Origin: a virus
Taxonomy: Duplodnaviria; Heunggongvirae; Uroviricota; Caudoviricetes
DNA length: 26,146 nucleotides
Virus record (IMG/VR): IMGVR_UViG_2695420651_000027
Direction: 5' to 3' (one strand)
Shown one piece after another: positions 1,221 to 16,565 of this stretch; position 1 is the first letter of the stretch; each line of letters starts with the position of its first letter. The translations under genes were made by a program, and so were the position numbers. The notes below the pieces were generated by a model. It was not told where the DNA came from and did not search any database. It saw nothing but the letters and a program-made list of their open reading frames with translations.

Positions 1221-1579
1221 CTACCGTCCTATCGAAATATAACTGAATCTGTATTGCTGTGAGATATCACTGGTTGCCACACGCCACGCTGAATTACTGA
1301 TATGTTCAAAATTTACAGACAAAACCTGCGGGGCAGGAATCGACGGGTCTGACTGAACGGCATCAGACATAACACTGACTGAAACCATCGGCTGATTAGG
1401 GAATGGTATAGGGAAGTGTCCACTGATAAAGCGGGTCGTGTTTCCTGCAAAAGTGCCAAACTGAACAATATATCCACCTGGTAGCCTGAACCATCCCGAA
1501 CCAGAAGCGAATGCTCCCATATCCGGTATCTGATTATCTCCTGTGCCCACATCCCTTTTCGCCGCTTCTCCCAAACCAA
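1221..1579 (-). CDS. Alternative tail fibre C-terminal variable exon, cassette B (promoterless; expressed only when fused to H constant region at the crossover site); runs into N gap
   Basis: Open frame from the crossover half-site (encoding LG-E...) to a stop just upstream of tfaB; no ATG, begins at recombination site. Confidence 0.6.
1566..1579. other. Recombination crossover half-site TTCTCCCAAACCAA (hix/gix-like), truncated by N gap
   Basis: Identical 14-mer occurs at 2122-2135 and 16540-16553 where the full 26-bp quasi-palindromic site is visible. Confidence 0.7.
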
Positions 1580-1590
1580 NNNNNNNNNNN
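1580..1590. other. Assembly gap (11 N)
   Basis: Run of N placed exactly between crossover half-site and start of the inverted-repeat copy. Confidence 0.95.
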
Positions 1591-1830
1591 TGGCAATGAG
1601 TTCGCTATTTAATACAGCTTTATTCATCATGCGGCCCTCACAATATAATTAAAAGCGATGTTACGAGGACGAGTTTCTGTACCTACATTTTCACTAATTT
1701 CACCATAACGTTTAACACTACGAGAGCTAATAGCTCGTAGTGAGGAAGGCACCTTAAGACCGGGTTCGTCCGTTTTAACTATTCCCCCGTCACCGTATGT
1801 AGCCAGTATTCCTGGGTTTACTCCTTCCCG
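1591..1830. repeat. Inverted repeat copy (reverse complement of 1-240); covers end of fibre variable exon A and first 40 nt of tfaA
   Basis: Direct comparison: 1-20 is the reverse complement of 1811-1830, and 221-240 of 1591-1610. Confidence 0.9.
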
Positions 1831-3183
1831 TGCACTTCCTGCGGCGAGTCCGTCCCCTGTCCATAATTCCATATAGTGTGCATGGTCCAAAATTGTGTGT
1901 GGCTGCCAATTAAGCAAAGCGCGACCAGTATCAATCCCGCGACTGTCATCCCAGCCACGAATAAATTCACCGCGTAAATCAGGCAATTTATTGGTCGGGT
2001 AAGCCTTTGCCAGTTCCGGGTATTCTTCAGCAGAAAAAGCCGCACCGTTGCATTTCAGCCAGCCTGTTGGCGGAGTGGCGGAAGGCCACGGAACAGGCAC
2101 ACCAACGGGTAATGCCGAACCTTCTCCCAAACCAAGGTATGCGAGAAGACCAGCGACATCCTTTCCACTCAAATTAGTCAGCGTATTGTCCAGCGGTTGT
2201 TTACCTGCCAGCGCATTAAGCATTGTCGTGGCAAAGTTCGGATCATTCCCCAACGCCGACGCCAGTTCGTTCAGTGTATCCAGTGCCGCAGGTGCAGAAC
2301 CTACCATTGCTGCAATCGCCGATTTCACAAAAGCCGTGGTGGCAATCTGTGTATTGTTGACCGACTGTGCAGCAGTGGGGGCTGTTGGCGTTCCGGTGAG
2401 TGCCGGACTCGACAACGGCGCTTTCAGTGCCAGCGCATTGTTAATGGTGGTACTGAAATTCGGATCATTGTTAATGGCTGCGGCTATTTCTTTCAGCGTG
2501 TCCAGCGTGGCTGGCGCACCATTAATAAGAGCCGTCAGTGCCGCCTGAACAAACGCGGTGGTCGCAACCTGCGTGGTGTTATTCCCTGCCGCTGGAGTTG
2601 GCGCTTTTGGTGTCCCGGTAAACGTCGGACTTTCTTTGGGTGCATACTGTGAATGCGGGTCCGGTGCGGCAAGATGTTTTGCCATCTGATCATCCACGTA
2701 CACCTTCAGCTCCAGTACCTTGTCATCCACATACTTGCGGGTTGCCAGCACTACGGCAGGGTCGATTTTCAGGGTGATATTGTCCGTGCTGCTGGTAATC
2801 AGCACCATGCGCACGGTCTGGGTACGCCCGCTGCCTTCAGCCAGTTGCGGCTTATAGCTTTCCGGGCAGTTGCCCACGGCAATCAATGCCCCGGACTCAT
2901 CAAACAGGCCCACTTCACGTATCCACCAACCGCCCTCGTTTTCAGGGATCACCTGTTCAGCAATAATCTGGCTGCTGTTCTGCGGGTCGATATAGAGCAT
3001 ATTCAGCGCAGCCCGGCGTTTCTCATTTACCAATGCTGTCTGCTTGGCGTCCGGCGTTGGCAATGTTCCGCCGCCATCGCCCACCGCCATATGGGTAATT
3101 TTTAGCGGCACACCGAGCGCGGCGGCGCTGGCAAGTTTCGCCGCGCCAATATCCGTCAGCAGGGTATAAAATTTTGTGCTCAT
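1627..3183 (-). CDS. H: Tail fibre protein (P2 gpH-like): constant N-terminal region fused to variable C-terminus A
   Basis: 518-aa ORF; N-terminus MSTKFYTLLTDIG... is P2 H-like; internal approx 68-aa tandem repeat; crossover site embedded at 2122-2147. Confidence 0.85.
   Translation of the reverse strand: MSTKFYTLLTDIGAAKLASAAALGVPLKITHMAVGDGGGTLPTPDAKQTALVNEKRRAALNMLYIDPQNSSQIIAEQVIPENEGGWWIREVGLFDESGALIAVGNCPESYKPQLAEGSGRTQTVRMVLITSSTDNITLKIDPAVVLATRKYVDDKVLELKVYVDDQMAKHLAAPDPHSQYAPKESPTFTGTPKAPTPAAGNNTTQVATTAFVQAALTALINGAPATLDTLKEIAAAINNDPNFSTTINNALALKAPLSSPALTGTPTAPTAAQSVNNTQIATTAFVKSAIAAMVGSAPAALDTLNELASALGNDPNFATTMLNALAGKQPLDNTLTNLSGKDVAGLLAYLGLGEGSALPVGVPVPWPSATPPTGWLKCNGAAFSAEEYPELAKAYPTNKLPDLRGEFIRGWDDSRGIDTGRALLNWQPHTILDHAHYMELWTGDGLAAGSAREGVNPGILATYGDGGIVKTDEPGLKVPSSLRAISSRSVKRYGEISENVGTETRPRNIAFNYIVRAA
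2122..2147. other. 26-bp invertase crossover site inside H (TTCTCCCAAACC AA GGTATGCGAGAA)
   Basis: Imperfect 12-bp inverted half-sites around a central AA; matches the Hin/Gin family consensus as recalled (TTnTCnnAAACC AA GGTTTnnGAnAA). Confidence 0.7.
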
Positions 3184-3785
3184 GGATTCACTCTCATTGT
3201 GTCAATAACATGGACCGCCCCGCCTTCATGCGCGGTGCCGCCGGAAATAATTGTTTCGTTGATATACGGATAGATCGTGATTTCTTCGCCAAGATAGCTG
3301 GCGGCCCCCACCCAATGCGGACCGCTGGTCTGCAGATTGATGGACATGCCGATCATGTGACGGCTACATGGTTTGGCATCGCTTATCAGCCGCTCAAGTT
3401 CCAGATAGGTATCTTCAGTGATGCCCTGGTCCTGCACGCCGATATCCAGGCGAAACGTGCCCGGTGTTTCTCCGGTCTGCCACCACTCAATAATGCGGAT
3501 CAGGAATCCGAACGGTTCCACCACCCGCCGCACGGCACTGGTAGTTCCTTTATGCTGATGAATATAAAAAGCATCCTTCACTACCTGGCGTTTGACGCTT
3601 TCTGTCCAGCCCTCGTCCCAGCGATCCACAGAGAACGCCCAGGCGAGATAAGGCAGGAAGCTGACCGGACAGGTAGCCGGATTCCACAAGTCACGCAGCG
3701 GCACCTGCAGATCAGAAATCCCGCTACAGGTTTGCGCCAGTCGGCGCTCCAGTGAAGTTGAACCCGGTGGCAGCAGACTATTCAT
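3180..3785 (-). CDS. I: Baseplate/tail-fibre attachment protein (P2 gpI-like)
   Basis: 201-aa ORF in conserved position between J and H; overlaps H start. Confidence 0.8.
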   Translation of the reverse strand: MNSLLPPGSTSLERRLAQTCSGISDLQVPLRDLWNPATCPVSFLPYLAWAFSVDRWDEGWTESVKRQVVKDAFYIHQHKGTTSAVRRVVEPFGFLIRIIEWWQTGETPGTFRLDIGVQDQGITEDTYLELERLISDAKPCSRHMIGMSINLQTSGPHWVGAASYLGEEITIYPYINETIISGGTAHEGGAVHVIDTMRVNP

Positions 3786-4686
3786 CCGTTCCTCCGTTGG
3801 TTACGCTCCACTGCGTACATGATGCCGCCTGTGTTTTGTTCAGGACCACATCCGCCAGCGGAGAAGCCAGTTCCACACGTTGAACACCCTCAACATGCAG
3901 AGCAGCAAAGATGGCGCTACGGCGAATATCCCGACCAAGCCTCGTCTGGCTGGCAATGTACTTCTGCAGACTGGCTTTTGCCGCTGCCATTACCGGCTCT
4001 GCTTCCGGTCCCGGATAGAGAAAAATGGTGGCTTCCACGCGATACGGGATGATTTCTGCGCTGCGAACCGTAAGACGGTCAGCCACCGGGCGGACGTTCT
4101 CACTGTTCAGAGCTTTTTCCACCACGTCCAGCAGGTCTTTTTCTGCAGTTCCATCGCCTTCGCGGCTAAGGACAGTCAGCACCACCTCTGCAGGTGCCGG
4201 GCTGGTTGCACTGGCATCCGCCACCCGACCGTCGGCGCTTCGGGCATGAAATTCATAAGCTGCAGTTGGCCCCGCAACTGAAAGCCCTTCAAAGGCTGCA
4301 GGCACACGCAGGCGTAACGCTTCATCGCTTTCCATCACAGCTGCAACGGGCGGCACATCGTCATTATCAGCAGGCGTCACCGTCAGGCGTTTCACGTTGT
4401 AGTTGGCGGCGAGCTGGTCCAGATCGCCCCCTATGGCATAAGCCACCATCACCGCCTGCGCGGCTTCGTTAATGCGCTGGCGCAGAAGCAACTCACGGTA
4501 AGCATTCTCCTGCAACAATTTGGTGACGGGTTCAGATTCCAGTTCCAGCGTGCGGATCACTGCTTCCTGCTCATCTTTCGGATGAAGCGCCACAAATTCT
4601 GCCTTGCGTTCGGCAAGCAGCGTCTCAAAGTCCGGCACATCCACAATCTGCGGCGCAGGCAACTGCGAAAGGTCAATCACTGCCAT
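3778..4686 (-). CDS. J: Baseplate assembly protein J
   Basis: Start moved to internal Met MAVIDLSQLPAP (aligns with P2 gpJ N-terminus as recalled); AGGAG RBS upstream; longer ORF start at 4725 would overlap W. Confidence 0.8.
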   Translation of the reverse strand: MAVIDLSQLPAPQIVDVPDFETLLAERKAEFVALHPKDEQEAVIRTLELESEPVTKLLQENAYRELLLRQRINEAAQAVMVAYAIGGDLDQLAANYNVKRLTVTPADNDDVPPVAAVMESDEALRLRVPAAFEGLSVAGPTAAYEFHARSADGRVADASATSPAPAEVVLTVLSREGDGTAEKDLLDVVEKALNSENVRPVADRLTVRSAEIIPYRVEATIFLYPGPEAEPVMAAAKASLQKYIASQTRLGRDIRRSAIFAALHVEGVQRVELASPLADVVLNKTQAASCTQWSVTNGGTDE

Positions 4687-5032
4687 TCTCTGCTCCTGTT
4701 GATACGGAAAGGGAAACAGGCACACCGTTATTACGCCGCCCGGTCAGCTCCACCACCATTGAACCGTCAAAATTGCTGTTAATGGTGATGGAATCCAGCG
4801 TCAGCCGTGGCTCCCAGCGACTCAGCGCCACATACACTGCCGACATGACCTGCAGGCGTAATGCCGGATTTTGTGGCTGGTCTATCAGTGCCGACAGCAG
4901 GGAACCATATTCCCGACGGGCAATGCGGCTACCCTGCGGCGTCAGCAAAATGTCCCGCACCGACTGGCGCAGATGATCAATATCAGTAATGGCTTTACCG
5001 CTGGTATTGTTCATCCCGCTATAAAGCGTCAT
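4673..5032 (-). CDS. W: Baseplate protein W (gp25/GPW family)
   Basis: 119-aa ORF; similar in pattern to P2 gpW; overlaps V stop. Confidence 0.8.
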   Translation of the reverse strand: MTLYSGMNNTSGKAITDIDHLRQSVRDILLTPQGSRIARREYGSLLSALIDQPQNPALRLQVMSAVYVALSRWEPRLTLDSITINSNFDGSMVVELTGRRNNGVPVSLSVSTGAENGSD

Positions 5033-5607
5033 ACCGGGCCTCCGGTTGTGTCGCCGCCTTTCAGGACGTCAGTATGCTGATGCGCATCAACCACGATCCC
5101 GTTAGAACTCATCGCTCCGCCGCCCTGGGTAACGCCACCATTGATCACCACTTCGCTGTTAATGCGCGTGCGGTCAGCCTCCAGTACAAACTCACTGGTT
5201 TTCATGGTGATGTTGTCAGCGGCCTCAATGACCATTGATTTGATGCCCCTGACATACCAGCGCCCGGTAGTGGGTTCGTATTCAAACCAGCCGCCGTCAG
5301 GATGTTCTGTCACGCAGGCGTCTGCCGACGTCGACGGTGGTGCGAACTGATTCGAATAGACAGCGGGCAGCGCAAAGGCAGTTTCCAGATTGCCGCCCAG
5401 ACTCAGCAGCACCACCTGCTCACCTTCCGATGGTCGCCACCATGTGCGGGCATTCCCGGCACGCAGCGTCAGCCAGCTGATCCAGTTGGTTTCAAGCTCG
5501 CCCGTTTTCACCCGGCAAAGCCAGTTTTCCCGGTCCACTTCGGTGACTACACCAGTGCGGATCAGGTTGGTGATAAGGCGCATGATTTCGGTTAGTTGTG
5601 CGTTCAT
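5029..5607 (-). CDS. V: Baseplate spike/assembly protein V
   Basis: Start at internal Met MNAQLTEIMRLITNLIRTG, aligning with recalled P2 gpV N-terminus; upstream 36 codons of the long ORF are likely untranslated. Confidence 0.75.
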   Translation of the reverse strand: MNAQLTEIMRLITNLIRTGVVTEVDRENWLCRVKTGELETNWISWLTLRAGNARTWWRPSEGEQVVLLSLGGNLETAFALPAVYSNQFAPPSTSADACVTEHPDGGWFEYEPTTGRWYVRGIKSMVIEAADNITMKTSEFVLEADRTRINSEVVINGGVTQGGGAMSSNGIVVDAHQHTDVLKGGDTTGGPV

Positions 5608-5653
5608 AGGGTTAGGTTGCACGGACCTTGAATCTATGGCATCAATACGTCCT

Positions 5654-5671
5654 TGTGTGGTAAATGACACA
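5654..5671. promoter_or_regulatory. Candidate Ogr-dependent late promoter element (TGT-N12-ACA dyad) in the V / cargo intergenic region
   Basis: TGT at 5654-5656, 12-nt spacer, ACA at 5669-5671; same dyad type recurs upstream of O and FI. Confidence 0.45.
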
Positions 5672-5702
5672 AATACAATTCCAATCAAAGAAAGGTAAAA
5701 GA

Positions 5703-6233
5703 ATGAGCCATCCAATTGATTATTACGCTATAGAAGAACACGCAAGAATAATTGAGCAATTATGCTGTTCATCTGAATTTTATTTACAGCGTATATATTC
5801 CACACAGAAAGTATATGATGGTTCTATAGTAACTGAATTTGAAATGGAGGAGTTATCGTACAACGGATGGTTGGAATATACCATTAGCAACAATCTTATT
5901 AGCCTTTGTACAAAACTACGAATTCTCCAAGACACTAGTGAACATGAGTGGAACCCAGATTACTCACCTGAGAAAGAAGCATTTGAAGAACATGAAAATA
6001 TACTTTTTGTTATAGATGGTCATGTTAAAGATTCTATACGCGAATGCTGCAATAAAATTATTCACGCATTAAGTTTTGAGTTAACAAAAAAGACCGGCAA
6101 AAATGGAATAAAATATTGGGACGGTTCTATTATTGCTTCTGGGGTTCAAAACAAAAAAAACTGGAAAATTAAAATAGACCTTTTCCCTTTTTGCCAAAGC
6201 ATAAAAAGTTATTTAAGTTTATTAAGAGCGTAA
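5703..6233 (+). CDS. Hypothetical protein; low-GC cargo (moron) gene at the P2 orf30 position between S and V, opposite strand
   Basis: 176-aa ORF from Met with AAAGG RBS 8 nt upstream; composition visibly AT-rich versus flanking structural genes; no family recognised. Confidence 0.6.
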   Translation: MSHPIDYYAIEEHARIIEQLCCSSEFYLQRIYSTQKVYDGSIVTEFEMEELSYNGWLEYTISNNLISLCTKLRILQDTSEHEWNPDYSPEKEAFEEHENILFVIDGHVKDSIRECCNKIIHALSFELTKKTGKNGIKYWDGSIIASGVQNKKNWKIKIDLFPFCQSIKSYLSLLRA

Positions 6234-6238
6234 ACATT

Positions 6239-6691
6239 CTAATTTTTCATCAATAAATACTTTAAAAGTAAATCTCTTACTTCATTTTCAGTATGTTCAT
6301 TTAAACCCAGCAATTTTCGGGATGGATACTTAATGACTCCCCCCTTTGGACTGACGCGATCGCGCAGACCGTAGTGATGAACACGGGCAATACGCTGTAC
6401 CTTACCTTCAAACTGTACGCTGGCAGAATCCGCGCTGGCGGCAGTTCTCAGGTATTTTGTGGTGCGCAGCTTTGCAAACATCTGACGTTTGATGCGCCCC
6501 TTCTTGCTGCGTGCTGTTACCCTGCGCGGCTCATAACTGCTGCCATCTGGATTGCGCTGCATCCTGATATTCTGCTGCTGTGTCCGGCGCAGTTCCTGCG
6601 CCAGCTGGCGCATCATTCGGCTTCTTGCGGCTGGTTCCAGATTCGCCAGCAAAGCACTCAGCCAGTCGTCCACCTTCTGCAGTTCAGCCAC
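6239..6691 (-). CDS. S: Tail completion protein S
   Basis: 150-aa ORF in conserved R-S order; P2 gpS-like. Confidence 0.75.
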   Translation of the reverse strand: MAELQKVDDWLSALLANLEPAARSRMMRQLAQELRRTQQQNIRMQRNPDGSSYEPRRVTARSKKGRIKRQMFAKLRTTKYLRTAASADSASVQFEGKVQRIARVHHYGLRDRVSPKGGVIKYPSRKLLGLNEHTENEVRDLLLKYLLMKN

Positions 6692-7136
6692 GTTTCACCG
6701 TCCACATTTCTTCAGGTTCATCGGGTTCCGCTACTGCTTCAACGCTCGACACACTTCCGTCAGTGCTGACCAGCACACGTTCCGTCAGTTGCAGGTTGAG
6801 GCTGATATCACAGACATCGTTGCGCAGAATATCCACCTCAAAGGTGAATAACTTTTCCCGTAACGCCGGATTATTGATGGCATCGGGCTGGTTATCACGC
6901 AGCCACAGCAAAACCGGGGCCATCAGCAGATTCTGGTCGCCGCTGAAATCCTCAATCACCACGTTGAGGGTATAACGGTACTCCCATGACATGGAGCTGG
7001 CCCCCGTGGCAACCAGCGAACCGTTATCCACAAACAGATGCAGCTTATCCGGGTTATTGCGGACATAAGGCACTGCTTTATTGAGGGCGTGGCGCAGGGA
7101 TTGTGGTTTGTTCACTGTTTCGCTCCTGACACGCAA
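6684..7136 (-). CDS. R: Tail completion protein R
   Basis: 150-aa ORF; KPQSLRHAL...FVDNGS...RYTLNV pattern matches recalled P2 gpR. Confidence 0.75.
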   Translation of the reverse strand: MRVRSETVNKPQSLRHALNKAVPYVRNNPDKLHLFVDNGSLVATGASSMSWEYRYTLNVVIEDFSGDQNLLMAPVLLWLRDNQPDAINNPALREKLFTFEVDILRNDVCDISLNLQLTERVLVSTDGSVSSVEAVAEPDEPEEMWTVKRG

Positions 7137-7368
7137 TAATCATGTCCACTTTGTCTGCACAGACCGCCCAGGCGGCCTCCGTTTCATCCAGCAATGCGTT
7201 CAGATCACCGTTAGTGCGCGGCGCTGCCTGCTCCAGCCGACACGGCGTCACTCGCGGACAACCACTGACGGTAAGCTGCACCTCCGGTGAGTGCCGGACG
7301 TTCCCGCAGCCGGATAATGTCAGCAGGCAAAGGAGTATCAGCCCAGCGGCGTAAATCCTCGTTCTCAC
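7078..7368 (-). CDS. lysC: Outer-membrane spanin lipoprotein (LysC/Rz1-like), overlapping the 3' end of lysB in another frame
   Basis: Signal peptide plus lipobox LTLSGC; starts inside lysB; Pro-rich mature region. Confidence 0.6.
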   Translation of the reverse strand: MRTRIYAAGLILLCLLTLSGCGNVRHSPEVQLTVSGCPRVTPCRLEQAAPRTNGDLNALLDETEAAWAVCADKVDMIIACQERNSEQTTIPAPRPQ

Positions 7369-7639
7369 GTTTCAGTTCCTCGATCCGGTGTTGTCGTTGT
7401 CTCAGCAGCGCGCTGGTCTGTTCTGCTTCGGCATAGAGCCGCGCCTGCTCCCGGTTATTGGTTTCAGCCAGAATGGACAGACTGATCAGCTGGCTATTTT
7501 TCTTCGTTAGTTCGTGCGCTTTACTTTTCAGCGCCGCGCGCTGCGTTTCGATGGTGTGGCTGGCGCTGTTAAGCCGCCACGACTGCCAGCCCAGCGCAAC
7601 GAGTGCCAGCGCCGCCACTACCGCCAGCGCACGCGTCAT
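7211..7639 (-). CDS. lysB: Inner-membrane spanin (LysB/Rz-like)
   Basis: N-terminal TM segment, coiled-coil-like charged region; ATGA overlap with endolysin stop. Confidence 0.7.
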   Translation of the reverse strand: MTRALAVVAALALVALGWQSWRLNSASHTIETQRAALKSKAHELTKKNSQLISLSILAETNNREQARLYAEAEQTSALLRQRQHRIEELKRENEDLRRWADTPLPADIIRLRERPALTGGAAYRQWLSASDAVSAGAGSAAH

Positions 7640-8151
7640 AATCCAGCTCCTTTAAGGCACCAGGCCATCTCCCGCGCACGGCGGTTATCCAGCCCCTGAT
7701 TAAACACACCTTTCACATAAACCCAGCGCGGCAACTGTCGGCACGCTTCTGCCCAGCGCCGCTGATTGAGCAATTTCACCAGCGTAGAACTGCAGGCATT
7801 GCCCGTTCCCACGTTGAAGGCAAACGACACCGTAGCGTCATATACCTTCTGCGGCGGCTGTTGCTTCACACACCTTTCCAGCGCCCGCTCCACACGCAGC
7901 ACGTTGGAAATAAGCCCTTCTGCTGCCTGTCGTTCCGTGATTGTTTTGCCGGGAATGACGCCCGACGTATTTCCAATGCCGTCGGTCCAGACACCCGCGC
8001 TGCACTGATACGGCTGCAGACGACAACCTTCGTAATCGGCAATCAGTTTCAGCCCCTCCACGGAGGTGTGAAGCTGCTGAAACCCCGGCAGCGTGGCAGC
8101 AATAGCCAGCACGGCCCCGACAAGGCAGCGTTTAACGATTGATGGATTCAT
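7636..8151 (-). CDS. Endolysin, lysozyme family with E-x8-C-x5-T catalytic triad and N-terminal SAR-like hydrophobic segment
   Basis: YEGCRLQPYQCSAGVWTDGIG motif; N-terminal CLVGAVLAIAATLP hydrophobic stretch resembles SAR endolysins (phage 21 R / P1 Lyz type). Confidence 0.75.
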   Translation of the reverse strand: MNPSIVKRCLVGAVLAIAATLPGFQQLHTSVEGLKLIADYEGCRLQPYQCSAGVWTDGIGNTSGVIPGKTITERQAAEGLISNVLRVERALERCVKQQPPQKVYDATVSFAFNVGTGNACSSTLVKLLNQRRWAEACRQLPRWVYVKGVFNQGLDNRRAREMAWCLKGAGL

Positions 8152-8347
8152 AGTCCTCCCGCGAAATCTGCCCGTCGCGCAGAAGCTGGTAGGCTTTGTG
8201 TTTGTAGTACCAGTTGATAGCCAGCATCAGCACACCAATCATCAGGCCGCCCAGCGTTGAGGCATCCTTGATGGACAAATCGCCCAGCCAGGCCAGCACG
8301 ACGGCGATGCAATACGTGATAAAGGCGCTGATTCGCTCAAGCGTCAT
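8132..8347 (-). CDS. Putative holin (small two-TMD membrane protein, pinholin-like)
   Basis: 71 aa, two hydrophobic helices, charged C-terminus; immediately upstream of the endolysin. Confidence 0.6.
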   Translation of the reverse strand: MTLERISAFITYCIAVVLAWLGDLSIKDASTLGGLMIGVLMLAINWYYKHKAYQLLRDGQISREDYESINR

Positions 8348-8350
8348 AAT

Positions 8351-8554
8351 TCAGTCCCATAGCTGGACGGTCTGCACGGTGGTGGTTGTCGGAATGTCCG
8401 GCAGCTCCACCTGCAGCCCGTGAGGTAAAAAGGGGCCGTATTCGGCAAGCCCCGGATTTGCCTTCAGTACCTGCTCCGTGACACCCTGCGTGCGCCCGTA
8501 ATGACGCCAGCAAAGTGCGTCCACCGTGTCATACTGATGCGCACGCACTTTCAT
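8351..8554 (-). CDS. X: Tail protein X
   Basis: 67-aa ORF closely matching recalled P2 gpX (YGRT.GV.E.VL.ANPGLAE...LPHG..VELPD). Confidence 0.8.
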   Translation of the reverse strand: MKVRAHQYDTVDALCWRHYGRTQGVTEQVLKANPGLAEYGPFLPHGLQVELPDIPTTTTVQTVQLWD

Positions 8555-9018
8555 CAGATAAGCTCCACTGTGCAGTGCGGCGCATCCTGCACCCGGCTGA
8601 TGGCCCAGCGGGCGTCACGCCATAAATCACCGCTTGCTTCCGCCAGTTCCTCGCCTCGCTTCGCACCGGATGCCGTGGCGTCATAGTCCTGGTAACGTTC
8701 GTTGAGCATGGCGCGTGCCCAGCAGTAAACCGCGTTGAAATAGTGCTGAATGCGCTCGCTTTTGCCGTCCAGTTGTTCCGCCGGGACTTCTGCCAGCGAG
8801 GCATACCCCAGCATCTGCTGGCGTCTGCGAAACTCATACAGCTCTGCGTTGACCTCCGAAATTGCCGACAGCGCAACCTGCTTTAAACGCGGCTGCGTCA
8901 CCGTGCCGTCAGTGCGCATGACACTGCGAAACTCCGACAGGTCCACATCAGGCCAGAACGGCGTATTTCTGATGATTTCCGCCTGTTCCGGTGCCTGTTC
9001 TGGCGCAACAAACTTCAT
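8554..9018 (-). CDS. L: Head completion/stabilisation protein L
   Basis: Start set at Met MKFVAPEQ preceded by GGAGAA RBS; P2 gpL-like. Confidence 0.75.
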   Translation of the reverse strand: MKFVAPEQAPEQAEIIRNTPFWPDVDLSEFRSVMRTDGTVTQPRLKQVALSAISEVNAELYEFRRRQQMLGYASLAEVPAEQLDGKSERIQHYFNAVYCWARAMLNERYQDYDATASGAKRGEELAEASGDLWRDARWAISRVQDAPHCTVELI

Positions 9019-9113
9019 GCTGCTTTCTCCTGAAATAAAGGGCGGTGGACGGGGTTTTGATGTGGCAGTGCCTTTCGCCACCCCGTGCCGCCCGTGCGCG
9101 GGGGCACGTTCTG

Positions 9114-9764
9114 TCAGCGGCTGTCATTGCGCAGTCTGCGCTCCAGCTGCTGTTTGTCTTTTTTCACGCCACAGCGGGGATCGAGCTGTAACGCATGGTT
9201 GAGATGATTAAGGGCGGAAGCCGGATTACTTTCACTCAGGACAGCGCCAATCGCTTTATGCAGACGCGCCCGTGACTGGTCCGGCATATCCAGACCGTCT
9301 GTCAGCTCCAGCGTCTGCAGCAGCAGATCGACATCAAAGCCGGTAGTGGCAAGCATTGCGCTCTGCGCTGCGTCTGCCATTTCCTCTGCCAGCACGGTCT
9401 GCACGTTGCGGTTACCTAGCGGCATCACCCAGCCATGACGCAGGGCATGACGCCCGATCTCCAGCGCTCCGACATAATCTCCGGCATCAATGCGCCACAG
9501 CATCACGTACATCAGCACGTCATCCTGTTGAGCGCCTCCGGCAGCCAGGACACCCTCCGCCCAGGCGGCGTATTTCGGCAGCAGCTCCACCTTGATTTCC
9601 GCTTTTTTGACCGTGGACTGAACGCCCTTGAGACGGCGGCGGTCTTCTGCCAGTTGCAGCAGCATCAGGTCATAGCCCGACGCGTGGCGAACGCTGCCGC
9701 CCTCGCGGGCGGCCTGTTCAGCCTGAACGCGCAGGCGATGCTGCCGTGCGGGACTCAGGCTCAT
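9114..9764 (-). CDS. M: Terminase small (endonuclease) subunit M
   Basis: 216-aa ORF in conserved N-M-L order. Confidence 0.75.
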   Translation of the reverse strand: MSLSPARQHRLRVQAEQAAREGGSVRHASGYDLMLLQLAEDRRRLKGVQSTVKKAEIKVELLPKYAAWAEGVLAAGGAQQDDVLMYVMLWRIDAGDYVGALEIGRHALRHGWVMPLGNRNVQTVLAEEMADAAQSAMLATTGFDVDLLLQTLELTDGLDMPDQSRARLHKAIGAVLSESNPASALNHLNHALQLDPRCGVKKDKQQLERRLRNDSR

Positions 9765-9767
9765 GGT

Positions 9768-10826
9768 TTACGCTCCGGTTTCTGCTGCGGCGGCGCTGAA
9801 GTCGCCAATCTGGATGTTTTCCACCAGTGCGGCGCAGCGGTAGTCCTCAACCACATAGGCTTCGTTAACGGATTCAAAATTTTCAATCCGGTCACGTTTC
9901 GGGTTGTCGATAACCGAACGGCGGCGGGTGTCTTCCTGCCAGTAAATGGACAGGTTATCCAGACGGGTGATCAGCAGCGCATTCGGCGGGAAGAACGGCG
10001 CACGCACGGCCTGCAGGCCACCCATGCGTTTCTGACTGATGATCATATCGGCAGCCAGTTTTTCACTGTTTTCCTGCTCTTTGTTGACCAGCGGGAAATA
10101 CTTGTCAGACAGCAGCTCACGACCGCAAATCACCACCAGATCGTCATCGTCCTGGTAGACCACGTCGATAAGCTCATTGACCGCATCCATCACCACGGCG
10201 TCCAGGTTGGCATATTCGCCACCTTTCCCGACTTTCACCGCACCCGGTGTGGTTTCACCGCCCGTGGTGGTGCTGCCCATGACGTGATCCGGTGCATCCT
10301 CACGGATTTTCTGCAGCCAGCCTTTGTTCACATCCTGCAGCAGCGGGTTTTCGCTACGGTTGGAGGTTTTCGCACGCTTCACGCCGTTAAAGCCGATCAT
10401 GATGCGGTCCAGTGCCTGGCGTTTCACGATGGCGTCACGGATACGCACCTGGAAATCCTGAAACTTCGCCCACAGGTCCAGCTTCGCGTAGGTCAGCACC
10501 GTGTCAAAGTTGGTCTGTTCGCATTTGTATTCCACATCGATCATCAGCGTCGGATCGACAGGTTCACGCTCTTTCGCGGTGGTGTCAGTGGTTCCGGCAA
10601 TGGTGCTGCCAACACCCAATCCAAGCAGCTGACCGGACTGCTCAGTCACTGGCGTGACGTTAATCAGCGTCAGGAAAGCGGCGGACTGCTGGATCTGGTC
10701 TTCCAGCGTCTGCTGCACAGACGGCTCTACGGTGAACTTGCTGGACAGTTCCTCAACTGCCACACCGTTCAGACGCGCCAGTTGCTGCAGGTAAGCGTTA
10801 AAAGCAAAACGGGTATTCTTCTTCAT
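9768..10826 (-). CDS. N: Major capsid protein N
   Basis: 352-aa ORF; P2 gpN-like. Confidence 0.85.
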   Translation of the reverse strand: MKKNTRFAFNAYLQQLARLNGVAVEELSSKFTVEPSVQQTLEDQIQQSAAFLTLINVTPVTEQSGQLLGLGVGSTIAGTTDTTAKEREPVDPTLMIDVEYKCEQTNFDTVLTYAKLDLWAKFQDFQVRIRDAIVKRQALDRIMIGFNGVKRAKTSNRSENPLLQDVNKGWLQKIREDAPDHVMGSTTTGGETTPGAVKVGKGGEYANLDAVVMDAVNELIDVVYQDDDDLVVICGRELLSDKYFPLVNKEQENSEKLAADMIISQKRMGGLQAVRAPFFPPNALLITRLDNLSIYWQEDTRRRSVIDNPKRDRIENFESVNEAYVVEDYRCAALVENIQIGDFSAAAAETGA

Positions 10827-10842
10827 TGGGTTTTATGCTCCA

Positions 10843-11676
10843 TCAGCAATTGGTCAGAGTGTCAGCGGGGGCGTTGCCGCCTGTTGCACGCTGGCGGTAG
10901 TCCTGGCGGCTGTCTTCATGACTCAGCTTATCCACCAGTTCGTTAAAGGCGGTTTGCTGCTCCTGCAGAGCAGTCTCCAGCTCAGACAGGCGTTCTTCCT
11001 GCTCAGACAGGGATTTTTCGGTGCGCGTGCTCAGGTTCTGCTGCTCAGTGGCGACCAGTTCCACGGCCTTATGCACATCAGAGAACCGGACGTCATCGGA
11101 CTGCTCTTTTTTGGTAAACAGCGCCGTGACGCGGGCAAACAGGGACGGCTTGTCCTCCTGGATTTCTTCCAGTTCGATCACCGTTTCCTCTGCAGCGGTA
11201 AAAAGATTGGCAGGATTCTGCTTGCGGTTTGCCAGCGGGTTATGGGCTGCACTGGCGCTGAATGTCAGCATTTCCGTACCCAGACTGGCGGGATCATCAG
11301 TGGCAGCCAGGCCGACCAGGTAGGCTTTGCCCGTATCAGCAAACTTCGGGCTGACTTCCATAGAGGTGAATAATTTCTGGCCTTTTTTCACCAGTTCCAC
11401 CAGGGACTCCGTTGGCTCAACGTCGGCATACAGTGCCATCTTGCCTGCCAGCGGACCTTCCGCGATTTCTTCAGCAAACAGCGCCGTCACCTTGCCGTAG
11501 CGGTTAAACGTGCTGTCCGGCAGATAAGACTTAATGTGCTCAAGGTTAATCAGCGCGGTATACACCGCCGGGTTGTAGCTGGCTGCCATCTGTTCCAGCC
11601 ATTCACGCTGGATTTCGCGTCCGTCGGTAGTGGCACCTTCCACCCCGATGCGAAAACGCTTTGCTTTCACTGTCAT
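10843..11676 (-). CDS. O: Capsid scaffolding protein O
   Basis: 277-aa ORF; FRIGVEG..DGR..INLEH motifs as in P2 gpO; C-terminal ...TNC. Confidence 0.85.
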   Translation of the reverse strand: MTVKAKRFRIGVEGATTDGREIQREWLEQMAASYNPAVYTALINLEHIKSYLPDSTFNRYGKVTALFAEEIAEGPLAGKMALYADVEPTESLVELVKKGQKLFTSMEVSPKFADTGKAYLVGLAATDDPASLGTEMLTFSASAAHNPLANRKQNPANLFTAAEETVIELEEIQEDKPSLFARVTALFTKKEQSDDVRFSDVHKAVELVATEQQNLSTRTEKSLSEQEERLSELETALQEQQTAFNELVDKLSHEDSRQDYRQRATGGNAPADTLTNC

Positions 11677-11754
11677 GAGCCGTGCTCCGTTAGAAAAAAC
11701 TTACTGGAGCCTTATGGTTGCGGTGATGGGGGCAGTGAAACAATGCGCGGTATT

Positions 11755-11772
11755 TGTACCGACAACCACACA
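11755..11772. promoter_or_regulatory. Candidate Ogr-dependent late promoter element (TGT-N12-ACA) in the divergent P / O intergenic region
   Basis: TGT 11755-11757, 12-nt spacer, ACA 11770-11772, in the 142-bp gap between divergent O and P starts. Confidence 0.5.
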
Positions 11773-11818
11773 AACCGCAGGCGGGGAAAGCCTTCATTCA
11801 AGGCTGTAGGTTTGTGCC

Positions 11819-13585
11819 ATGAACACCACACTGACACCCGCAGATCTCGATCCCCGTCGGCAGGCCATGCTGCTGTACTTTCAGGGATACCGCGTAGCCC
11901 GCATTGCTGAAATGCTGGGCGAGAAAGTTGCAACCGTTCACAGCTGGAAAAAACGCGACAAGTGGGGTGACTATGGGCCGCTGGATCAGATGCAGCTCAC
12001 CACCGCCGCCCGCTACTGCCAGCTCATTATGAAGGAGCACAAAGAAGGGAAAGATTTCAAAGAAATTGACCTGCTGGCGCGCCAGTCGGAGCGCCACGCG
12101 CGGATCGGCAAGTTTAACAATGGCGGCAACGAAGCCGACTTAAACCCTAACGTCGCCAACCGCAACAAAGGGCCGCGCCGTCAGCCGGAAAAGAATGTTT
12201 TCACCGATGAACAGATTGAGAAGCTGGAAGAAATCTTCCATTCCTCCATGTTCAACTACCAGCGCCACTGGTGGGAAGCCGGAAAAACCAATCGCATCCG
12301 CAACCTGCTGAAGTCTCGCCAGATCGGCGCGACCTTTTACTTTGCCCGTGAAGCCCTGATTGACGCCCTGCTGACCGGACGTAACCAGATTTTCCTTTCC
12401 GCCAGTAAGGCACAGGCCCACGTCTTTAAGCAGTACATCATCGACTTCGCCAAAGAAGTCGAGGTGGAGCTGAAAGGCGATCCGATGGTGCTTCCTAACG
12501 GGGCCACGCTTTACTTCCTCGGCACCAATGCCCGCACGGCCCAGAGTTACCACGGCAACCTGTATCTGGATGAATATTTCTGGATACCGAAATTCCAGGA
12601 GCTGCGCAAAGTGGCTTCCGGTATGGCTATTCACAAAAAATGGCGACAAACCTATTTTTCCACGCCATCCAGCCTGACACACAGTGCTTATCCGTTCTGG
12701 TCCGGTGCGCTGTTCAACCGAGGGCGCAACAAAGCCGATAAGGTGGACATCGACCTGTCCCACAGCAATCTGGCCCCCGGCCTGCTGTGCGCAGACGGGC
12801 AGTACCGCCAGATAGTCACCGTGGAAGATGCGGTGCGCGGCGGCTGTAACCTGTTCGACCTTGACCAGTTGCGCATGGAGTACAGCCCGGACGAATACCA
12901 GAACCTGCTGATGTGCGAGTTCGTGGACGATCTCGCGTCCGTGTTCCCGCTCAGCGAGCTGCAGGCGTGCATGGTGGACAGTTGGGAAGTCTGGACCGAC
13001 TTTCATGCACTGGCCCTGCGCCCGTTTGGCTGGCGCGAAGTGTGGATCGGATATGACCCGGCGAAAGGTACGCAGAACGGCGACAGCGCCGGATGCGTGG
13101 TGGTGGCGCCGCCAGCCGTGCCGGGCGGTAAGTTCCGCATTCTTGAGCGTCACCAGTGGCGCGGAATGGACTTCCGCGCCCAGGCTGACGCCATCAAAAA
13201 ACTGACCGAACAGTACAACGTGACCTATATCGGTATCGACTCAACCGGCGTTGGTCACGGGGTTTACGAGAACGTGAAAGCGTTTTTTCCTGCCGTCCGG
13301 GAGTTTGTCTACAACCCCAACGTTAAAAACGCCCTGGTACTCAAGGCCTACGACATTATCAGCCACCGCCGTCTGGAGTTTGACGCCGGACACACCGACA
13401 TAGCGCAGTCCTTTATGGCAATCCGTCGCGCCACCACCGCCAGTGGCAACCGCCCGACCTATGAAGCCAGCCGCAGCGAAGAAGCCAGCCACGCCGATCT
13501 GGCCTGGGCAACGATGCACGCACTGTTTAACGAACCGCTGCAGGGCGAATCCGCCAATACCAGCAATATTGTGGAGATTTTTTGA
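11819..13585 (+). CDS. P: Terminase large (ATPase) subunit P
   Basis: 588-aa ORF; N-terminus LTPADLDPRRQAMLLYFQGYRV resembles P2 gpP. Confidence 0.85.
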   Translation: MNTTLTPADLDPRRQAMLLYFQGYRVARIAEMLGEKVATVHSWKKRDKWGDYGPLDQMQLTTAARYCQLIMKEHKEGKDFKEIDLLARQSERHARIGKFNNGGNEADLNPNVANRNKGPRRQPEKNVFTDEQIEKLEEIFHSSMFNYQRHWWEAGKTNRIRNLLKSRQIGATFYFAREALIDALLTGRNQIFLSASKAQAHVFKQYIIDFAKEVEVELKGDPMVLPNGATLYFLGTNARTAQSYHGNLYLDEYFWIPKFQELRKVASGMAIHKKWRQTYFSTPSSLTHSAYPFWSGALFNRGRNKADKVDIDLSHSNLAPGLLCADGQYRQIVTVEDAVRGGCNLFDLDQLRMEYSPDEYQNLLMCEFVDDLASVFPLSELQACMVDSWEVWTDFHALALRPFGWREVWIGYDPAKGTQNGDSAGCVVVAPPAVPGGKFRILERHQWRGMDFRAQADAIKKLTEQYNVTYIGIDSTGVGHGVYENVKAFFPAVREFVYNPNVKNALVLKAYDIISHRRLEFDAGHTDIAQSFMAIRRATTASGNRPTYEASRSEEASHADLAWATMHALFNEPLQGESANTSNIVEIF

Positions 13586-14619
13586 TGGGAAAGAGTAAGA
13601 AGAACCGCGCTGCGGCGACGAAACAGATCCAGCTTAAAAGTCAAACTACAGCCGAAGCATTCAGCTTCGGCGATCCCGTTCCTGTTCTGGACCGCCGAGA
13701 ACTGCTGGATTATGTGGAATGCGTACAGATGGACCGCTGGTATGAGCCGCCCGTCAGCTTTGACGGACTGGCGCGCACCTTCCGCGCTGCCGTGCATCAT
13801 AGTTCCCCGATTGCAGTAAAGTGCAACATTCTGACCAGCACCTACATCCCTCACCCGCTGCTCAGCCAGCAGGCTTTTTCGCGTTTTGTGCAGGACTATC
13901 TGGTTTTTGGTAACGCCTACCTGGAGAAACGCACGAACCGCTTCGGTGAAGTTATCGCCCTTGAGCCTGCACTGGCAAAATACACCCGACGCGGGTTAGA
14001 CCTGGATACCTACTGGTTTGTGCAATACGGTATGACAACCCAGCCGTATCAGTTCACGAAAGGCAGCATTTTTCATCTGATGGAACCGGATATTAATCAG
14101 GAGATCTACGGCCTGCCCGGTTATCTTTCTGCCATTCCGTCAGCCCTGCTCAACGAGTCCGCCACGCTGTTCCGTCGCAAGTATTACATTAACGGCAGTC
14201 ATGCGGGCTTTATCATGTACATGACCGATGCCGCGCAAAACCAGGAGGATGTGAACAACCTCCGCAATGCGATGAAAAGCGCCAAAGGTCCAGGCAACTT
14301 CCGCAACCTGTTTATGTACTCGCCTAACGGCAAAAAAGACGGGCTTCAGATCATCCCATTGTCAGAAGTCGCGGCGAAGGATGAGTTTTTGAATATCAAA
14401 AATGTCAGCCGCGACGACATGATGGCTGCGCACCGCGTGCCGCCGCAAATGATGGGGATTATGCCTAATAATGTTGGAGGGTTTGGGGATGTGGAGAAGG
14501 CCAGTCGCGTATTTGTACGTAATGAATTAACGCCCTTGCAAAAAAGGCTACAAGAGCTGAACGACTGGCTGGGCGAAGAAGTGATTAAATTTACGCCCTA
14601 TATTCTTTCAGAAGAATAA
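13582..14619 (+). CDS. Q: Portal (capsid vertex) protein Q
   Basis: 345-aa ORF, overlaps P stop; P2 gpQ-like. Confidence 0.85.
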   Translation: MMGKSKKNRAAATKQIQLKSQTTAEAFSFGDPVPVLDRRELLDYVECVQMDRWYEPPVSFDGLARTFRAAVHHSSPIAVKCNILTSTYIPHPLLSQQAFSRFVQDYLVFGNAYLEKRTNRFGEVIALEPALAKYTRRGLDLDTYWFVQYGMTTQPYQFTKGSIFHLMEPDINQEIYGLPGYLSAIPSALLNESATLFRRKYYINGSHAGFIMYMTDAAQNQEDVNNLRNAMKSAKGPGNFRNLFMYSPNGKKDGLQIIPLSEVAAKDEFLNIKNVSRDDMMAAHRVPPQMMGIMPNNVGGFGDVEKASRVFVRNELTPLQKRLQELNDWLGEEVIKFTPYILSEE

Positions 14620-14627
14620 TTCCGAAC

Positions 14628-15326
14628 TTATTTGTTTCTTCTTTGTTCACGCCTTGTCTTGGCTTCGATAAGGCGTTGAGGTTCAGTGTAAAGCCGTTCT
14701 AAAAAAAGATAGGTAAAATCTTCAAGATCCTCAGCAGCAGCTTTATCCAAAATACCTTCATGCGCTCCATCATTTCCGTCATCTTTAACGCATTCAGCTA
14801 GTTCCCTTAAAGCTTCAGGCAGTAGATGATTATCAAATAACCACTCCATTCTTAACCCTAGGCTTCTCCTTATTTTTTGCGCAGGCCCTTGCTCCCCATC
14901 AGGAAGAAGTCCTTTTGTGGCATAATCAAGGCAAAGCCTAAACATGGTTGCTGCTGCATTATAACAACCTATAGCCAAACATTTCGCCCCTTCCTCATAT
15001 GCACTATTGATATGCTCAGGTAAGAACTCTGGTGGCTCCTCTACTGCTAAGTCTGCCGGTGATATAGGCCTAACAACCTCTGCAACTTCCTTTAAGCCGA
15101 ATATTCCACTTTCCCAATTATAGCCATCTAAAGTTTTATTTTTCGTTAAAGGTCTGCAAAGAAACATTGTCGTTTTATGACACTCTCGGCAAACACAATA
15201 GACCTCGTACTCGTATGTTTTACCCCCGCCCAATGCATTGTAAACCCTAGTGCAATTCAGCCCATTAACATCAAACGCTATTTTTTGTGATCCACATCGT
15301 GGACAGTCATCCACTAACATAACCAT
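14628..15326 (-). CDS. Hypothetical cargo protein: N-terminal Cys-rich zinc ribbon plus C-terminal DUF4145-like domain; candidate defence gene at the position P2 uses for old/tin
   Basis: 232-aa ORF, GGAGGAG RBS; CPRCG...CVCRECH cysteine cluster; C-terminal motif ...AIGCYNAAATMFRLCLDYA...ELAECVKDDGNDGAHEG recalled as DUF4145-like; AT-rich. Confidence 0.55.
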   Translation of the reverse strand: MVMLVDDCPRCGSQKIAFDVNGLNCTRVYNALGGGKTYEYEVYCVCRECHKTTMFLCRPLTKNKTLDGYNWESGIFGLKEVAEVVRPISPADLAVEEPPEFLPEHINSAYEEGAKCLAIGCYNAAATMFRLCLDYATKGLLPDGEQGPAQKIRRSLGLRMEWLFDNHLLPEALRELAECVKDDGNDGAHEGILDKAAAEDLEDFTYLFLERLYTEPQRLIEAKTRREQRRNK

Positions 15327-15406
15327 GTCAATTACTCCTCCCTATGAAAAAAATGAGTTGAAAAATTGAATATTCACGACTTAAAAAGCTAGGTAATGAC
15401 TCCAAC

Positions 15407-15910
15407 TTATTGATAGTGTTTTATGTTCAGATAATGCCCGATGACTTTGTCATGCAGCTCCACCGATTTTGAGAACGACAGCGACTTCCGTCCCAGCCGT
15501 GCCAGGTGCTGCCTCAGATTCAGGTTATGCCGCTCAATTCGCTGCGTATATCGCTTGCTGATTACGTGCAGCTTTCCCTTCAGGCGGGATTCATACAGCG
15601 GCCAGCCATCCGTCATCCATATCACCACGTCAAAGGGTGACAGCAGGCTCATAAGACGCCCCAGCGTCGCCATAGTGCGTTCACCGAATACGTGCGCAAC
15701 AACCGTCTTCCGGAGCCTGTCATACGCGTAAAACAGCCAGCGCTGGCGCGATTTAGCCCCGACGTATCCCCACTGTTCGTCCATTTCCGCGCAGACGATG
15801 ACGTCACTGCCCGGCTGTATGCGCGAGGTTACCGACTGCGGCCTGAGTTTTTTAAATGGCGGAAAATCGTGTTGAGGCCAACGCCCATAATGCGGGCGGT
15901 TGCCCGGCAT
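15407..15910 (-). CDS. insB: IS1 InsB (expressed as InsAB' transposase by -1 frameshift)
   Basis: 167-aa ORF matching IS1 InsB. Confidence 0.9.
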
Positions 15911-16104
15911 CCAACGCCATTCATGGCCATATCAATGATTTTCTGGTGCGTACCGGGTTGAGAAGCGGTGTAAGTGAACTGCAGTTGCCATGTTTTACGG
16001 CAGTGAGAGCAGAGATAGCGCTGATGTCCGGCGGTGCTTTTGCCGTTACGCACCACCCCGTCAGTAGCTGAACAGGAGGGACAGCTGATAGAAACAGAAG
16101 CCAC
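15829..16104 (-). CDS. insA: IS1 InsA
   Basis: 91-aa [26 protein letters not shown]... identical in pattern to IS1 InsA; A6C frameshift motif at about 15847-15853. Confidence 0.9.
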
Positions 16105-16159
16105 TGGAGCACCTCAAAAACACCATCATACACTAAATCAGTAAGTTGGCAGCATCACC

Positions 16160-16170
16160 NNNNNNNNNNN
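16160..16170. other. Assembly gap (11 N) immediately at the IS1 end
   Basis: N run. Confidence 0.95.
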
Positions 16171-16553
16171 CTTAAGACCGGGTTCGTCCGTTTTAACTAT
16201 TCCCCCGTCACCGTATGTAGCCAGTATTCCTGGGTTTACTCCTTCCCGTGCACTTCCTGCGGCGAGTCCGTCCCCTGTCCATAATTCCATATAGTGTGCA
16301 TGGTCCAAAATTGTGTGTGGCTGCCAATTAAGCAAAGCGCGACCAGTATCAATCCCGCGACTGTCATCCCAGCCACGAATAAATTCACCGCGTAAATCAG
16401 GCAATTTATTGGTCGGGTAAGCCTTTGCCAGTTCCGGGTATTCTTCAGCAGAAAAAGCCGCACCGTTGCATTTCAGCCAGCCTGTTGGCGGAGTGGCGGA
16501 AGGCCACGGAACAGGCACACCAACGGGTAATGCCGAACCTTCTCCCAAACCAA
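16171..16553. repeat. Direct repeat of 1753-2135: tail fibre variable exon A fragment joined to the invertase-proximal crossover site (silent cassette, or alternate-orientation junction)
   Basis: Identity checked over sampled segments at both ends of the two copies with a constant offset of 14418; identity ends exactly after TTCTCCCAAACCAA. Confidence 0.85.
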
Positions 16554-16565
16554 CGTTTATGAAAA
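16540..16565. other. 26-bp invertase crossover site adjacent to the invertase gene (TTCTCCCAAACC AA CGTTTATGAAAA)
   Basis: Quasi-palindromic half-sites around central AA; lies 55 bp upstream of the invertase start, as in gin/cin/hin systems. Confidence 0.7.

Follow-up and report, generated by a model that had tools for sequence, protein, structure and literature searches.

Results

Genes and features of the window

The window analyzed here, a stretch of 26,146 nucleotides, contains exactly two runs of N, each of 11 residues (1580-1590 and 16160-16170), which split it into block A (1-1579), block B (1591-16159), and block C (16171-26146). Block A represents the interior of an invertible tail fiber segment and matches positions 18562-20140 of L002 on the plus strand with 99.7% identity. 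It comprises the last 204 nt of an exon termed Sv (1-204, plus strand), a tail fiber assembly gene (201-806, plus strand), a second assembly gene (778-1218, minus strand), and the alternative exon S'v (1221-1579, minus strand). Pfam returned Caudo_TAP twice and Gp53-like_C for this block. The segment carries two opposed C-terminal fiber exons (Collar and Gp53-like_C domains), each with its own Caudo_TAP assembly gene. An exact-protein look-up of the assembly protein gave a single match, an unrelated metagenome contig, in which the layout is canonical as well.

Block B begins with exon Sv and 36 nt from the start of the assembly gene (1591-2135, minus strand; Collar domain), joined to the constant part of the tail fiber gene H (2136-3183, minus strand; Phage_tail_fib N-terminal domain). 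This junction defines state 1 of the switch. Both possible H fusions are in frame and encode 518 amino acids with Sv and 468 amino acids with S'v. The P2-type late genes I, J, W, V, S, R, the lysis genes, X, L, M, N, and O follow at 3180-11676 on the minus strand; they were recognized as open reading frames and are 99.95% identical to Escherichia phage Cartapus and 100.0% identical to the closed genome WEC, both of which are annotated. The terminase ATPase gene P and the portal gene Q lie at 11819-14619 (plus strand), and a DUF4145 accessory gene, located between Q and cos, lies at 14628-15326 (minus strand). Block B ends with a complete IS1 of 768 bp (15392-16159, minus strand), at a point that corresponds to Cartapus base 96/97, some 37 nt away from the annotated cos site. 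The element encodes a DDE_Tnp_IS1 transposase (E = 2e-78) and is 99% identical to IS1 copies in closed genomes; both ends were read directly and recognized by the IS1 sequence with its terminal inverted repeat. The inner flank at 15383-15391 reads AAAAAGCTA, the expected 9-bp target-site duplicate; on the outer side, the N run takes the place of the flank.

Block C starts with a second copy of exon Sv (16171-16553, minus strand), which is joined to the flank of a Gin-like serine DNA invertase gene (16621-17187, plus strand; Resolvase and HTH_7 domains) and forms the state 2 junction. Downstream lie the P2-type genes FI, FII, E/E', T, U, D, and ogr (17330-24454, plus strand) and, at the right end of the prophage, the tmRNA gene ssrA (25087-25449, minus strand), within which the match to the phage ends at window base 25131.

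The invertase and the crossover sites

The invertase matched Mu Gin (PDB 3UJ3) over its full length (residues 1-184; E = 8e-93) and contains a VRVSTNDQ motif. Its N-terminal catalytic domain, C-terminal helix-turn-helix, and position adjoining the segment are those of a small serine recombinase, and the gene together with its site is identical to Cartapus in 648 of 648 nt. In the Hin and Gin systems, a Fis-dependent recombinational enhancer lies within the 5' part of the invertase gene, with Fis sites roughly 48 bp apart. A degenerate and very loose Fis consensus matched gene positions 71 and 178 of the invertase gene, 107 bp apart.

The half-site TTCTCCCAAACCAA occurs three times in the window, at 1566, 2122, and 16540, always on the plus strand; 0.23 occurrences are expected by chance, and none of 100 shuffled sequences contained three. 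Two of these copies belong to full 26-bp crossover sites. The H-side site (2122-2147, minus strand) reads TTCTCGCATACC TT GGTTTGGGAGAA in the sense of H, and identity to WEC and Cartapus ends here. The invertase-side site (16540-16565, plus strand) reads TTCTCCCAAACC AA CGTTTATGAAAA. The 2-bp core is AA/TT in both. As given, the two sites are direct repeats; they become inverted repeats with an identical core once block B is reoriented. The third copy, at 1566-1579, is the end of S'v and of block A: the 12-nt half-site with its 2-nt core ends at base 1579, and the first N run follows directly. The three apparent crossover sites are really two sites and one redundant copy.

The second exon Sv (16171-16553) is a 383-nt direct copy of 1753-2135 with 100% identity. 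The two copies diverge right after the 14-mer, where the sequence continues as GGTATGCGAGAA on the H side and as CGTTTATGAAAA on the invertase side. Both junction types of the switch are present inside the window. An earlier note on this DNA had drawn attention to the three sites in one orientation, to gaps that coincide with repeat boundaries, to an H-to-O and P-Q block running opposite to FI-D, and to an extra fiber exon joined to the invertase-side site. Each of these observations was reproduced: block A stops at the half-site, block B stops at the terminal base of the full IS1 (16159), and the gene strands, taken from the open reading frames and from the annotation of relatives with 99.9 to 100% identity, are minus for H to O and plus for P and Q in block B but plus for the invertase and for FI to ogr in block C.

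Exact overlaps between the blocks

Comparison of the blocks with each other revealed two overlaps that are absent from the earlier note. Bases 1-240 of block A are the exact reverse complement of 1591-1830 in block B, and bases 1-78 are the exact reverse complement of 16171-16248 in block C. All overlaps among the three blocks are 100% identical. Block B extends 545 nt into the segment and block C 383 nt, and block A starts 305 nt inside the Sv-side crossover point (segment position 306). Since the end of B and the start of C both fall inside A, the Sv end of A is reached from the H flank as well as from the invertase flank. A simple k-mer graph fails to account for the ragged contig ends of A, B, and C.

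Comparison with closed genomes and phage Cartapus

All genes of the conserved P2 order (Q P / O N M L X lysis R S V W J I H [G] / FI FII E T U D ogr) are present in the window. The order is broken as given, is restored by reversing block B, and is seen in WEC, LT2-3, HCM-28C-2, and Cartapus. In WEC, reversed B matched 1125036-1138304 (plus strand, 100.0%) and C matched 1139239-1148847 of the same record (plus strand, 99.6%), so that the two lie about 0.9 kb apart on one strand and follow the P2 order up to ssrA. LF82 likewise has reversed B ahead of C on a single strand. Cartapus aligned to block B on the minus strand (13367 to 96, 99.95%) and to block C on the plus strand (14871 to 23463, 99.91%), and identity breaks exactly at its two crossover sites, 13353 and 14872, which are inverted.

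We then assembled an exact model consisting of reversed B, A from base 241, and C from base 16554. This model is collinear with the closed genome LT2-3 over the whole matched length. There, block A lies on the plus strand (99.7%) and shares exactly 240 nt with reversed B and the half-site with C. The 3.5-kb junction of the model gave a single ungapped match (3500/3500) in two closed genomes. Among the closed genomes, state 1 was observed in 22 and state 2 in 24, so both are about equally common. The A|B and IS1|C junctions as given were both absent from the 5,426 closed E. coli genomes (0/5,426 each). An exact scan of the genome collection with the sequence spanning the first N run gave no match.

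These comparisons bear out what the earlier note had proposed, namely, a probable scaffold mis-join: B and C match Cartapus on opposite strands but lie on one strand in WEC, and the given joins are absent from the closed genomes. Reversing 1591-16159 and placing 1-1579 before the invertase restores P2 synteny, as it had predicted, with collinearity to LT2-3 and the same arrangement in WEC, LF82, and Cartapus, and leaves the two real sites inverted, as in Cartapus. Its suggestion that the Sv|invertase junction of block C captures the other state of the switch also held, as this junction is contained in the flipped model and in the 24 closed genomes in state 2.

Discussion

Origin of the unusual gene order

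The odd gene order of the window is very probably an assembly artefact, in which three contigs of one P2-family prophage were joined in the wrong relative orientation. The marks of such an artefact were all found: block ends at repeat boundaries, exact overlaps, collinearity after reorientation, and given joins that are absent elsewhere. We propose that the window consists of three draft E. coli contigs with 11-N linkers and that all three derive from a single Cartapus-like prophage of the P2 family (Peduoviridae), integrated at ssrA. The actual sequence of elements would be cos, IS1, DUF4145, Q, P, O to H, the 1.9-kb invertible segment, the invertase, FI to ogr, ssrA, and smpB. Inversion of the segment by the Gin-like invertase was probably under way in the sequenced culture, which would have supplied reads for both states. 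Contig B would then run from the H constant part into exon Sv (state 1) and contig C from the invertase flank into the same exon (state 2), and contig A, the segment interior, would have stopped at the S'v crossover point, where reads branch. The other end of contig B presumably stopped at the far end of the multicopy IS1. In the joining step, C would have been misplaced with respect to A and B, in orientation as well as in position, which would account for the three same-strand site copies and for the reversed late-gene block.

Block A followed by B from base 2136 already represents the flipped state, so only C needs flipping. The given A-to-B adjacency is legitimate for that state, with the first 545 nt of B as an overhang of the alternate state, and one correction suffices: C is flipped and moved to the left of A. 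The solution of the earlier note is an equally valid path that leads to the other switch state. The IS1-to-C join is without any support.

A real rearrangement could in principle produce the same map. Intramolecular replicative transposition of the cos-side IS1 into exon Sv would invert the DUF4145-to-H region and place a copy of IS1 directly next to the 383 proximal nt of Sv beside the invertase, with direct crossover sites; reasoned from the maps, A, B from 2136, IS1, and C, in just this order, would be the outcome. Precedents exist, since in closed genomes IS1 abuts a homologous exon by pinE (TUM9868) and interrupts the assembly gene of a P2-like segment (strain G5). The TUM9868 junction, however, is in e14, a different element with 85% identity, and has a different breakpoint, and the IS1|C junction was found in no closed genome (0/5,426). 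Moreover, such an inversion demands that A start at base 70, with the 9-bp target duplication GGTCTTAAG, but the sequence continues unbroken across this supposed point of insertion in both A (1-240) and B (1591-1830), and the intact Sv-H junction of B is impossible in such a molecule. IS1-mediated inversion was therefore rejected as a highly improbable origin of the given order, and it is equally hard to believe that this arrangement physically exists in even part of the population. If it did, an IS1-mediated inversion would have parted the invertase from H and scrambled the prophage; the sites would be direct repeats 14.4 kb apart, and the invertase could only delete the DNA between them, not invert it.

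The exon could also be truly two-copy if B came from one and C from the other of two related P2-like prophages, each with the same Sv. Closed E. coli genomes often contain more than one match to these regions (median, 2 places per genome; up to 9 to 11). Against this origin, one phage, Cartapus, matches B with one half of its genome and C with the other, at 99.9% identity each, and the two blocks meet at one and the same site pair; they are adjacent in WEC and LF82; all A/B/C overlaps are 100% identical; and the window lacks any second set of late or tail genes. We consider two prophages very unlikely, and the comparison with Cartapus makes this reading less parsimonious, for which it was rejected. 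The N runs, finally, might be plain separators between contigs in arbitrary order, without any scaffolding inference, in which case the biology would be unchanged and only the origin of the joins would differ. Gaps of 11 N may be typical of one reference-guided scaffolder, an association that carries no weight here. The IS1-to-C join, with neither an overlap nor closed-genome support, would suit plain separators, but three contigs of one 34-kb prophage would hardly come to lie side by side by chance, and the fit of the A-to-B adjacency and orientation to the flipped state suggests real linking evidence at that gap; an arbitrary order is thus rather unlikely.

Relation to known switches and prophages

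The element is closest to Cartapus (NC_070909.1; Peduoviridae, Elveevirus), which E. coli LF82 also carries as a prophage. Both share the B (99.95%) and C (99.91%) regions, the crossover half-sites, and the position adjoining ssrA in LF82-type genomes. They differ in the cassette between the sites (about 1.5 kb in Cartapus and 1,884 bp here, of which just 185 nt can be aligned, with 90% identity), in the IS1 that the window carries at Cartapus base 96/97, and in the canonical order and inverted sites of Cartapus. The switch resembles those of the Din family (Mu G segment/Gin, P1 C segment/Cin, and e14 P segment/Pin), in which a Gin-like serine invertase adjoins a segment bounded by 26-bp sites, and in which the segment carries two opposed C-terminal fiber exons with their own assembly genes, both in frame with a constant N-terminal part. 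Unlike these, it resides in a P2-type genome and not in a Mu-, P1-, or lambdoid-type one, its invertase gene has about 70% DNA identity to gin and cin, and its sites are direct as given in the window, which is very probably an artefact.

A similar situation has been described for E. coli EC958, in which tail fiber inversion in about 50% of reads led to spurious extra contigs, and for NA114, in which contig ordering against a reference misplaced prophage loci (PMC4134206). As in the window, these assemblies contained an extra piece with the same fiber exon in the other junction context as well as misplaced prophage blocks. The evidence for EC958 comes from PacBio reads and that for the window from contig overlaps and closed-genome comparison. 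Coexisting orientations have also been documented for P2-like prophages of enteropathogenic E. coli (PMC4272514).

The main value of this analysis lies in quality control. The record should not be taken as evidence that the switch is rearranged or nonfunctional, that the late operon is reversed, or that three recombination sites exist, and annotation pipelines will call spurious open reading frames over the N runs, for example, at 1313-1630 and 16138-16593 on the minus strand. The window very probably represents an artefact over known biology, and the one thing that it does tell about biology is modest and of a kind with ample documentation: judging from the contig overlaps, both states probably coexisted in the sequenced culture, and the tail fiber switch of this Cartapus-like prophage was probably active there, as suggested by the occurrence of the duplicated exon in two junction contexts.

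Three contigs and their gene content

Two N runs, each of 11 bases (1580-1590 and 16160-16170), are the only ones in the window; they separate block A (1-1579), block B (1591-16159) and block C (16171-26146). The earlier note had described these gaps, three crossover sites on the same strand, an IS1 end at a gap and a duplicated exon, and all of these were confirmed in the sequence. The 14-mer TTCTCCCAAACCAA occurs three times, on the plus strand only (1566, 2122 and 16540), against 0.23 copies expected by chance; three copies were reached in 0 of 100 shuffles. It consists of the 12-nt segment-internal half-site and the 2-nt core, so the sequences flanking it swap on segment inversion. Block A stops with the final base of a TTCTCCCAAACCAA copy, and block B with the final base of a full-length 768-bp IS1. 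Positions 1753-2135 are repeated at 16171-16553 (383 nt, direct, 100% identical), and the two exon copies part directly after the 14-mer (GGTATGCGAGAA in block B versus CGTTTATGAAAA in block C). Two exact overlaps had not been mentioned in the earlier note: the reverse complement of 1591-1830 equals 1-240, and that of 16171-16248 equals 1-78. Mechanical ORFs at 1313-1630 (-) and 16138-16593 (-) span the N runs; they are artefacts of the joins, and annotation pipelines could report them as genes.

The sequence belongs to a P2-family prophage that resembles Cartapus, lies at ssrA and has an invertible tail-fibre segment of the Gin type. In block A, the end of the Collar-type fibre exon Sv is followed by two Caudo_TAP assembly genes in opposed orientation and by the gp53-like exon S'v, which runs into the half-site. 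In block B, the tail-fibre gene H (1627-3183, minus strand) is followed on the same strand by I, J, W, V, S, R, the lysis genes, X, L, M, N and O; the plus strand carries P and Q, with the DUF4145 gene and then IS1 beyond them. Block C encodes, on the plus strand, a serine recombinase of 188-190 aa followed by FI, FII, E, T, U, D and ogr; a small BRCT-like gene, ssrA (the tmRNA gene, 25087-25449) and smpB lie beyond ogr. Recombinase residues 1-184 align with Mu Gin (PDB 3UJ3, E = 8e-93), the catalytic serine motif VRVSTNDQ is present, and the invertase with its site is identical to Cartapus at 648/648 positions.

Three further genes were observed. For the 160-aa gene that separates ogr from the ssrA attachment end (24481-24963, minus strand), the BRCT match was below threshold and the match to PDC-S48 in PADLOC was weak; in Cartapus the gene is annotated as a putative exonuclease. 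An opposite-strand ORF of 189 aa (5664-6233, plus strand), embedded between tail genes S and V, had no match in Pfam or PADLOC; it is conserved in Cartapus (gp14) and WEC, where its product is annotated as hypothetical. The 232-aa DUF4145 protein (14628-15326, minus strand), encoded in the variable region that separates cos from Q, weakly matches PD-T7-4, a candidate defence family in PADLOC (E = 1e-6), and may, judging from sequence similarity, be an anti-phage protein.

Collinearity with closed genomes

The earlier note had proposed that the scaffold is mis-joined and that reversing block B restores the P2 gene order. Closed genomes bear this out. In WEC (NZ_CP114592), 1125036-1138304 (+) corresponds to reversed block B without IS1 (100.0% identity) and 1139239-1148847 (+) to block C (99.6%), on one strand and about 0.9 kb apart; LF82 gave the same picture. 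The annotated order in WEC is integrase, CI ... A, DinI, DUF4145, Q, P, O ... H, then the segment, followed by the recombinase, FI ... ogr, ssrA and smpB. Phage Cartapus (NC_070909), whose two crossover sites are in inverted orientation, matches block B on its minus strand (13367 to 96, 99.95%) and block C on its plus strand (14871 to 23463, 99.91%), and identity stops exactly at the crossover sites. The proposed model, built as reversed block B, block A from base 241 and block C from base 16554, was collinear with the closed genome LT2-3 across the entire matched length; there, block A (99.7%) overlaps reversed block B by exactly 240 nt and block C by the half-site. The modelled 3.5-kb junction, contiguous nowhere in the window, is a single ungapped 3500/3500 piece in two closed genomes (98%). 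At a coverage of at least 80%, neither the A-B nor the IS1-C junction as given (Ns removed) was found in any of 5,426 closed genomes.

Two states of the tail-fibre switch

Block B has Sv on the constant part of H (state 1), and block C has an identical Sv on the invertase flank (state 2). The model with the segment flipped contains the junction of block C and not that of block B, whereas the unflipped model contains that of block B and not that of block C. The extra exon copy, previously read as the alternate state of the switch, is indeed that; its junction recurs in the flipped model and in closed genomes. Closed genomes show the two states of this segment with about equal frequency (22 versus 24 genomes), and each set includes single-piece 3500/3500 matches. 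Both fibre fusions are in frame, joined at ...AYLGLGE (518 aa with Sv, 468 aa with S'v).

The contig ends are ragged, lying 545, 383 and 305 nt into the segment. The end of block B and the start of block C both fall within block A; thus, the Sv end of block A is reached from both flanks, and its other end stops exactly where two possible continuations part. This is the pattern expected if the sequenced DNA held both orientations, and from the contig overlaps we infer a mixed population. The in-frame fusions and the similar frequency of the two states agree with this reading, as do published cases. In E. coli EC958, a tail-fibre inversion in about half of the reads gave spurious extra contigs, and in NA114 prophage loci were misplaced by contig ordering against a reference (PMC4134206). 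For P2-like EPEC prophages, read mapping has revealed coexisting orientations (PMC4272514).

The proposed rearrangement can be refined. On the given strand, joining block A to block B at base 2136 reproduces exactly the flipped state, read from the opposite strand. Real linking evidence could therefore lie behind the first join, if the first 545 nt of block B are regarded as an overhang from the alternate state. A single correction then suffices: block C is turned round and placed left of block A, with an overlap of 78 nt. The earlier path (reversed B, A, C) is equally valid, for the other state.

IS1 and rival explanations

The complete IS1 (15392-16159) was read directly at both ends, and its transposase matches DDE_Tnp_IS1. 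Its insertion point, Cartapus base 96/97, is roughly 37 nt away from the annotated cos site (1-59) and 65 nt upstream of the DUF4145 gene; the IS1 flank on the side of this gene is 15383-15391. Such an insertion might influence packaging or the gene's expression. The outer flank, where the target duplication would lie, is replaced by Ns. Beyond this point Cartapus and WEC continue with cos and then early-region DNA, none of which was found in the window, and the join of the IS1 end to block C has no support. IS1 also occurs in the e14 exon adjoining pinE in TUM9868 (L004, 5548-6541) and in an assembly gene of a P2-like segment in G5 (L005, 5312-6691). These two independent insertions lie in homologous invertible fibre segments, which IS1 appears to hit recurrently.

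An inversion mediated by IS1 would likewise give the order A, B, IS1, C. It would require an IS1 within Sv at the first base of block C and block A starting at base 70, and it is very unlikely because blocks A and B both read straight through the required insertion point. The superficially similar IS1-exon-pinE junction of TUM9868 was rejected as a parallel: it lies in e14, is 85% identical and has another breakpoint. The blocks could also stem from two prophages, but blocks B and C are halves of one known phage that meet at the same sites, which makes this origin unparsimonious. The interpretation in the earlier note is supported: the anomaly is very probably an artefact of assembly and scaffolding over an ordinary element of an already known kind.

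Possible exchange and deletion of the invertible cassette

Two closed genomes have a shortened segment and a gene H annotated as truncated: WEC (L003, 25269-26200), where the truncation lies right at the crossover site, and HCM-28C-2 (L001, 17280-18700). Some lineages therefore appear to have undergone a deletion inside the switch. The flanks of the window cassette are 99.9-100% identical to Cartapus and WEC, and the cassette itself (1-1579 and 1591-2135) is 99.7% identical to LT2-3, whose flanks are only 95-97% identical. The invertible cassette was exchanged as a module, with breakpoints exactly at the crossover sites; these comparisons suggest that cassettes swap between phages at such sites.
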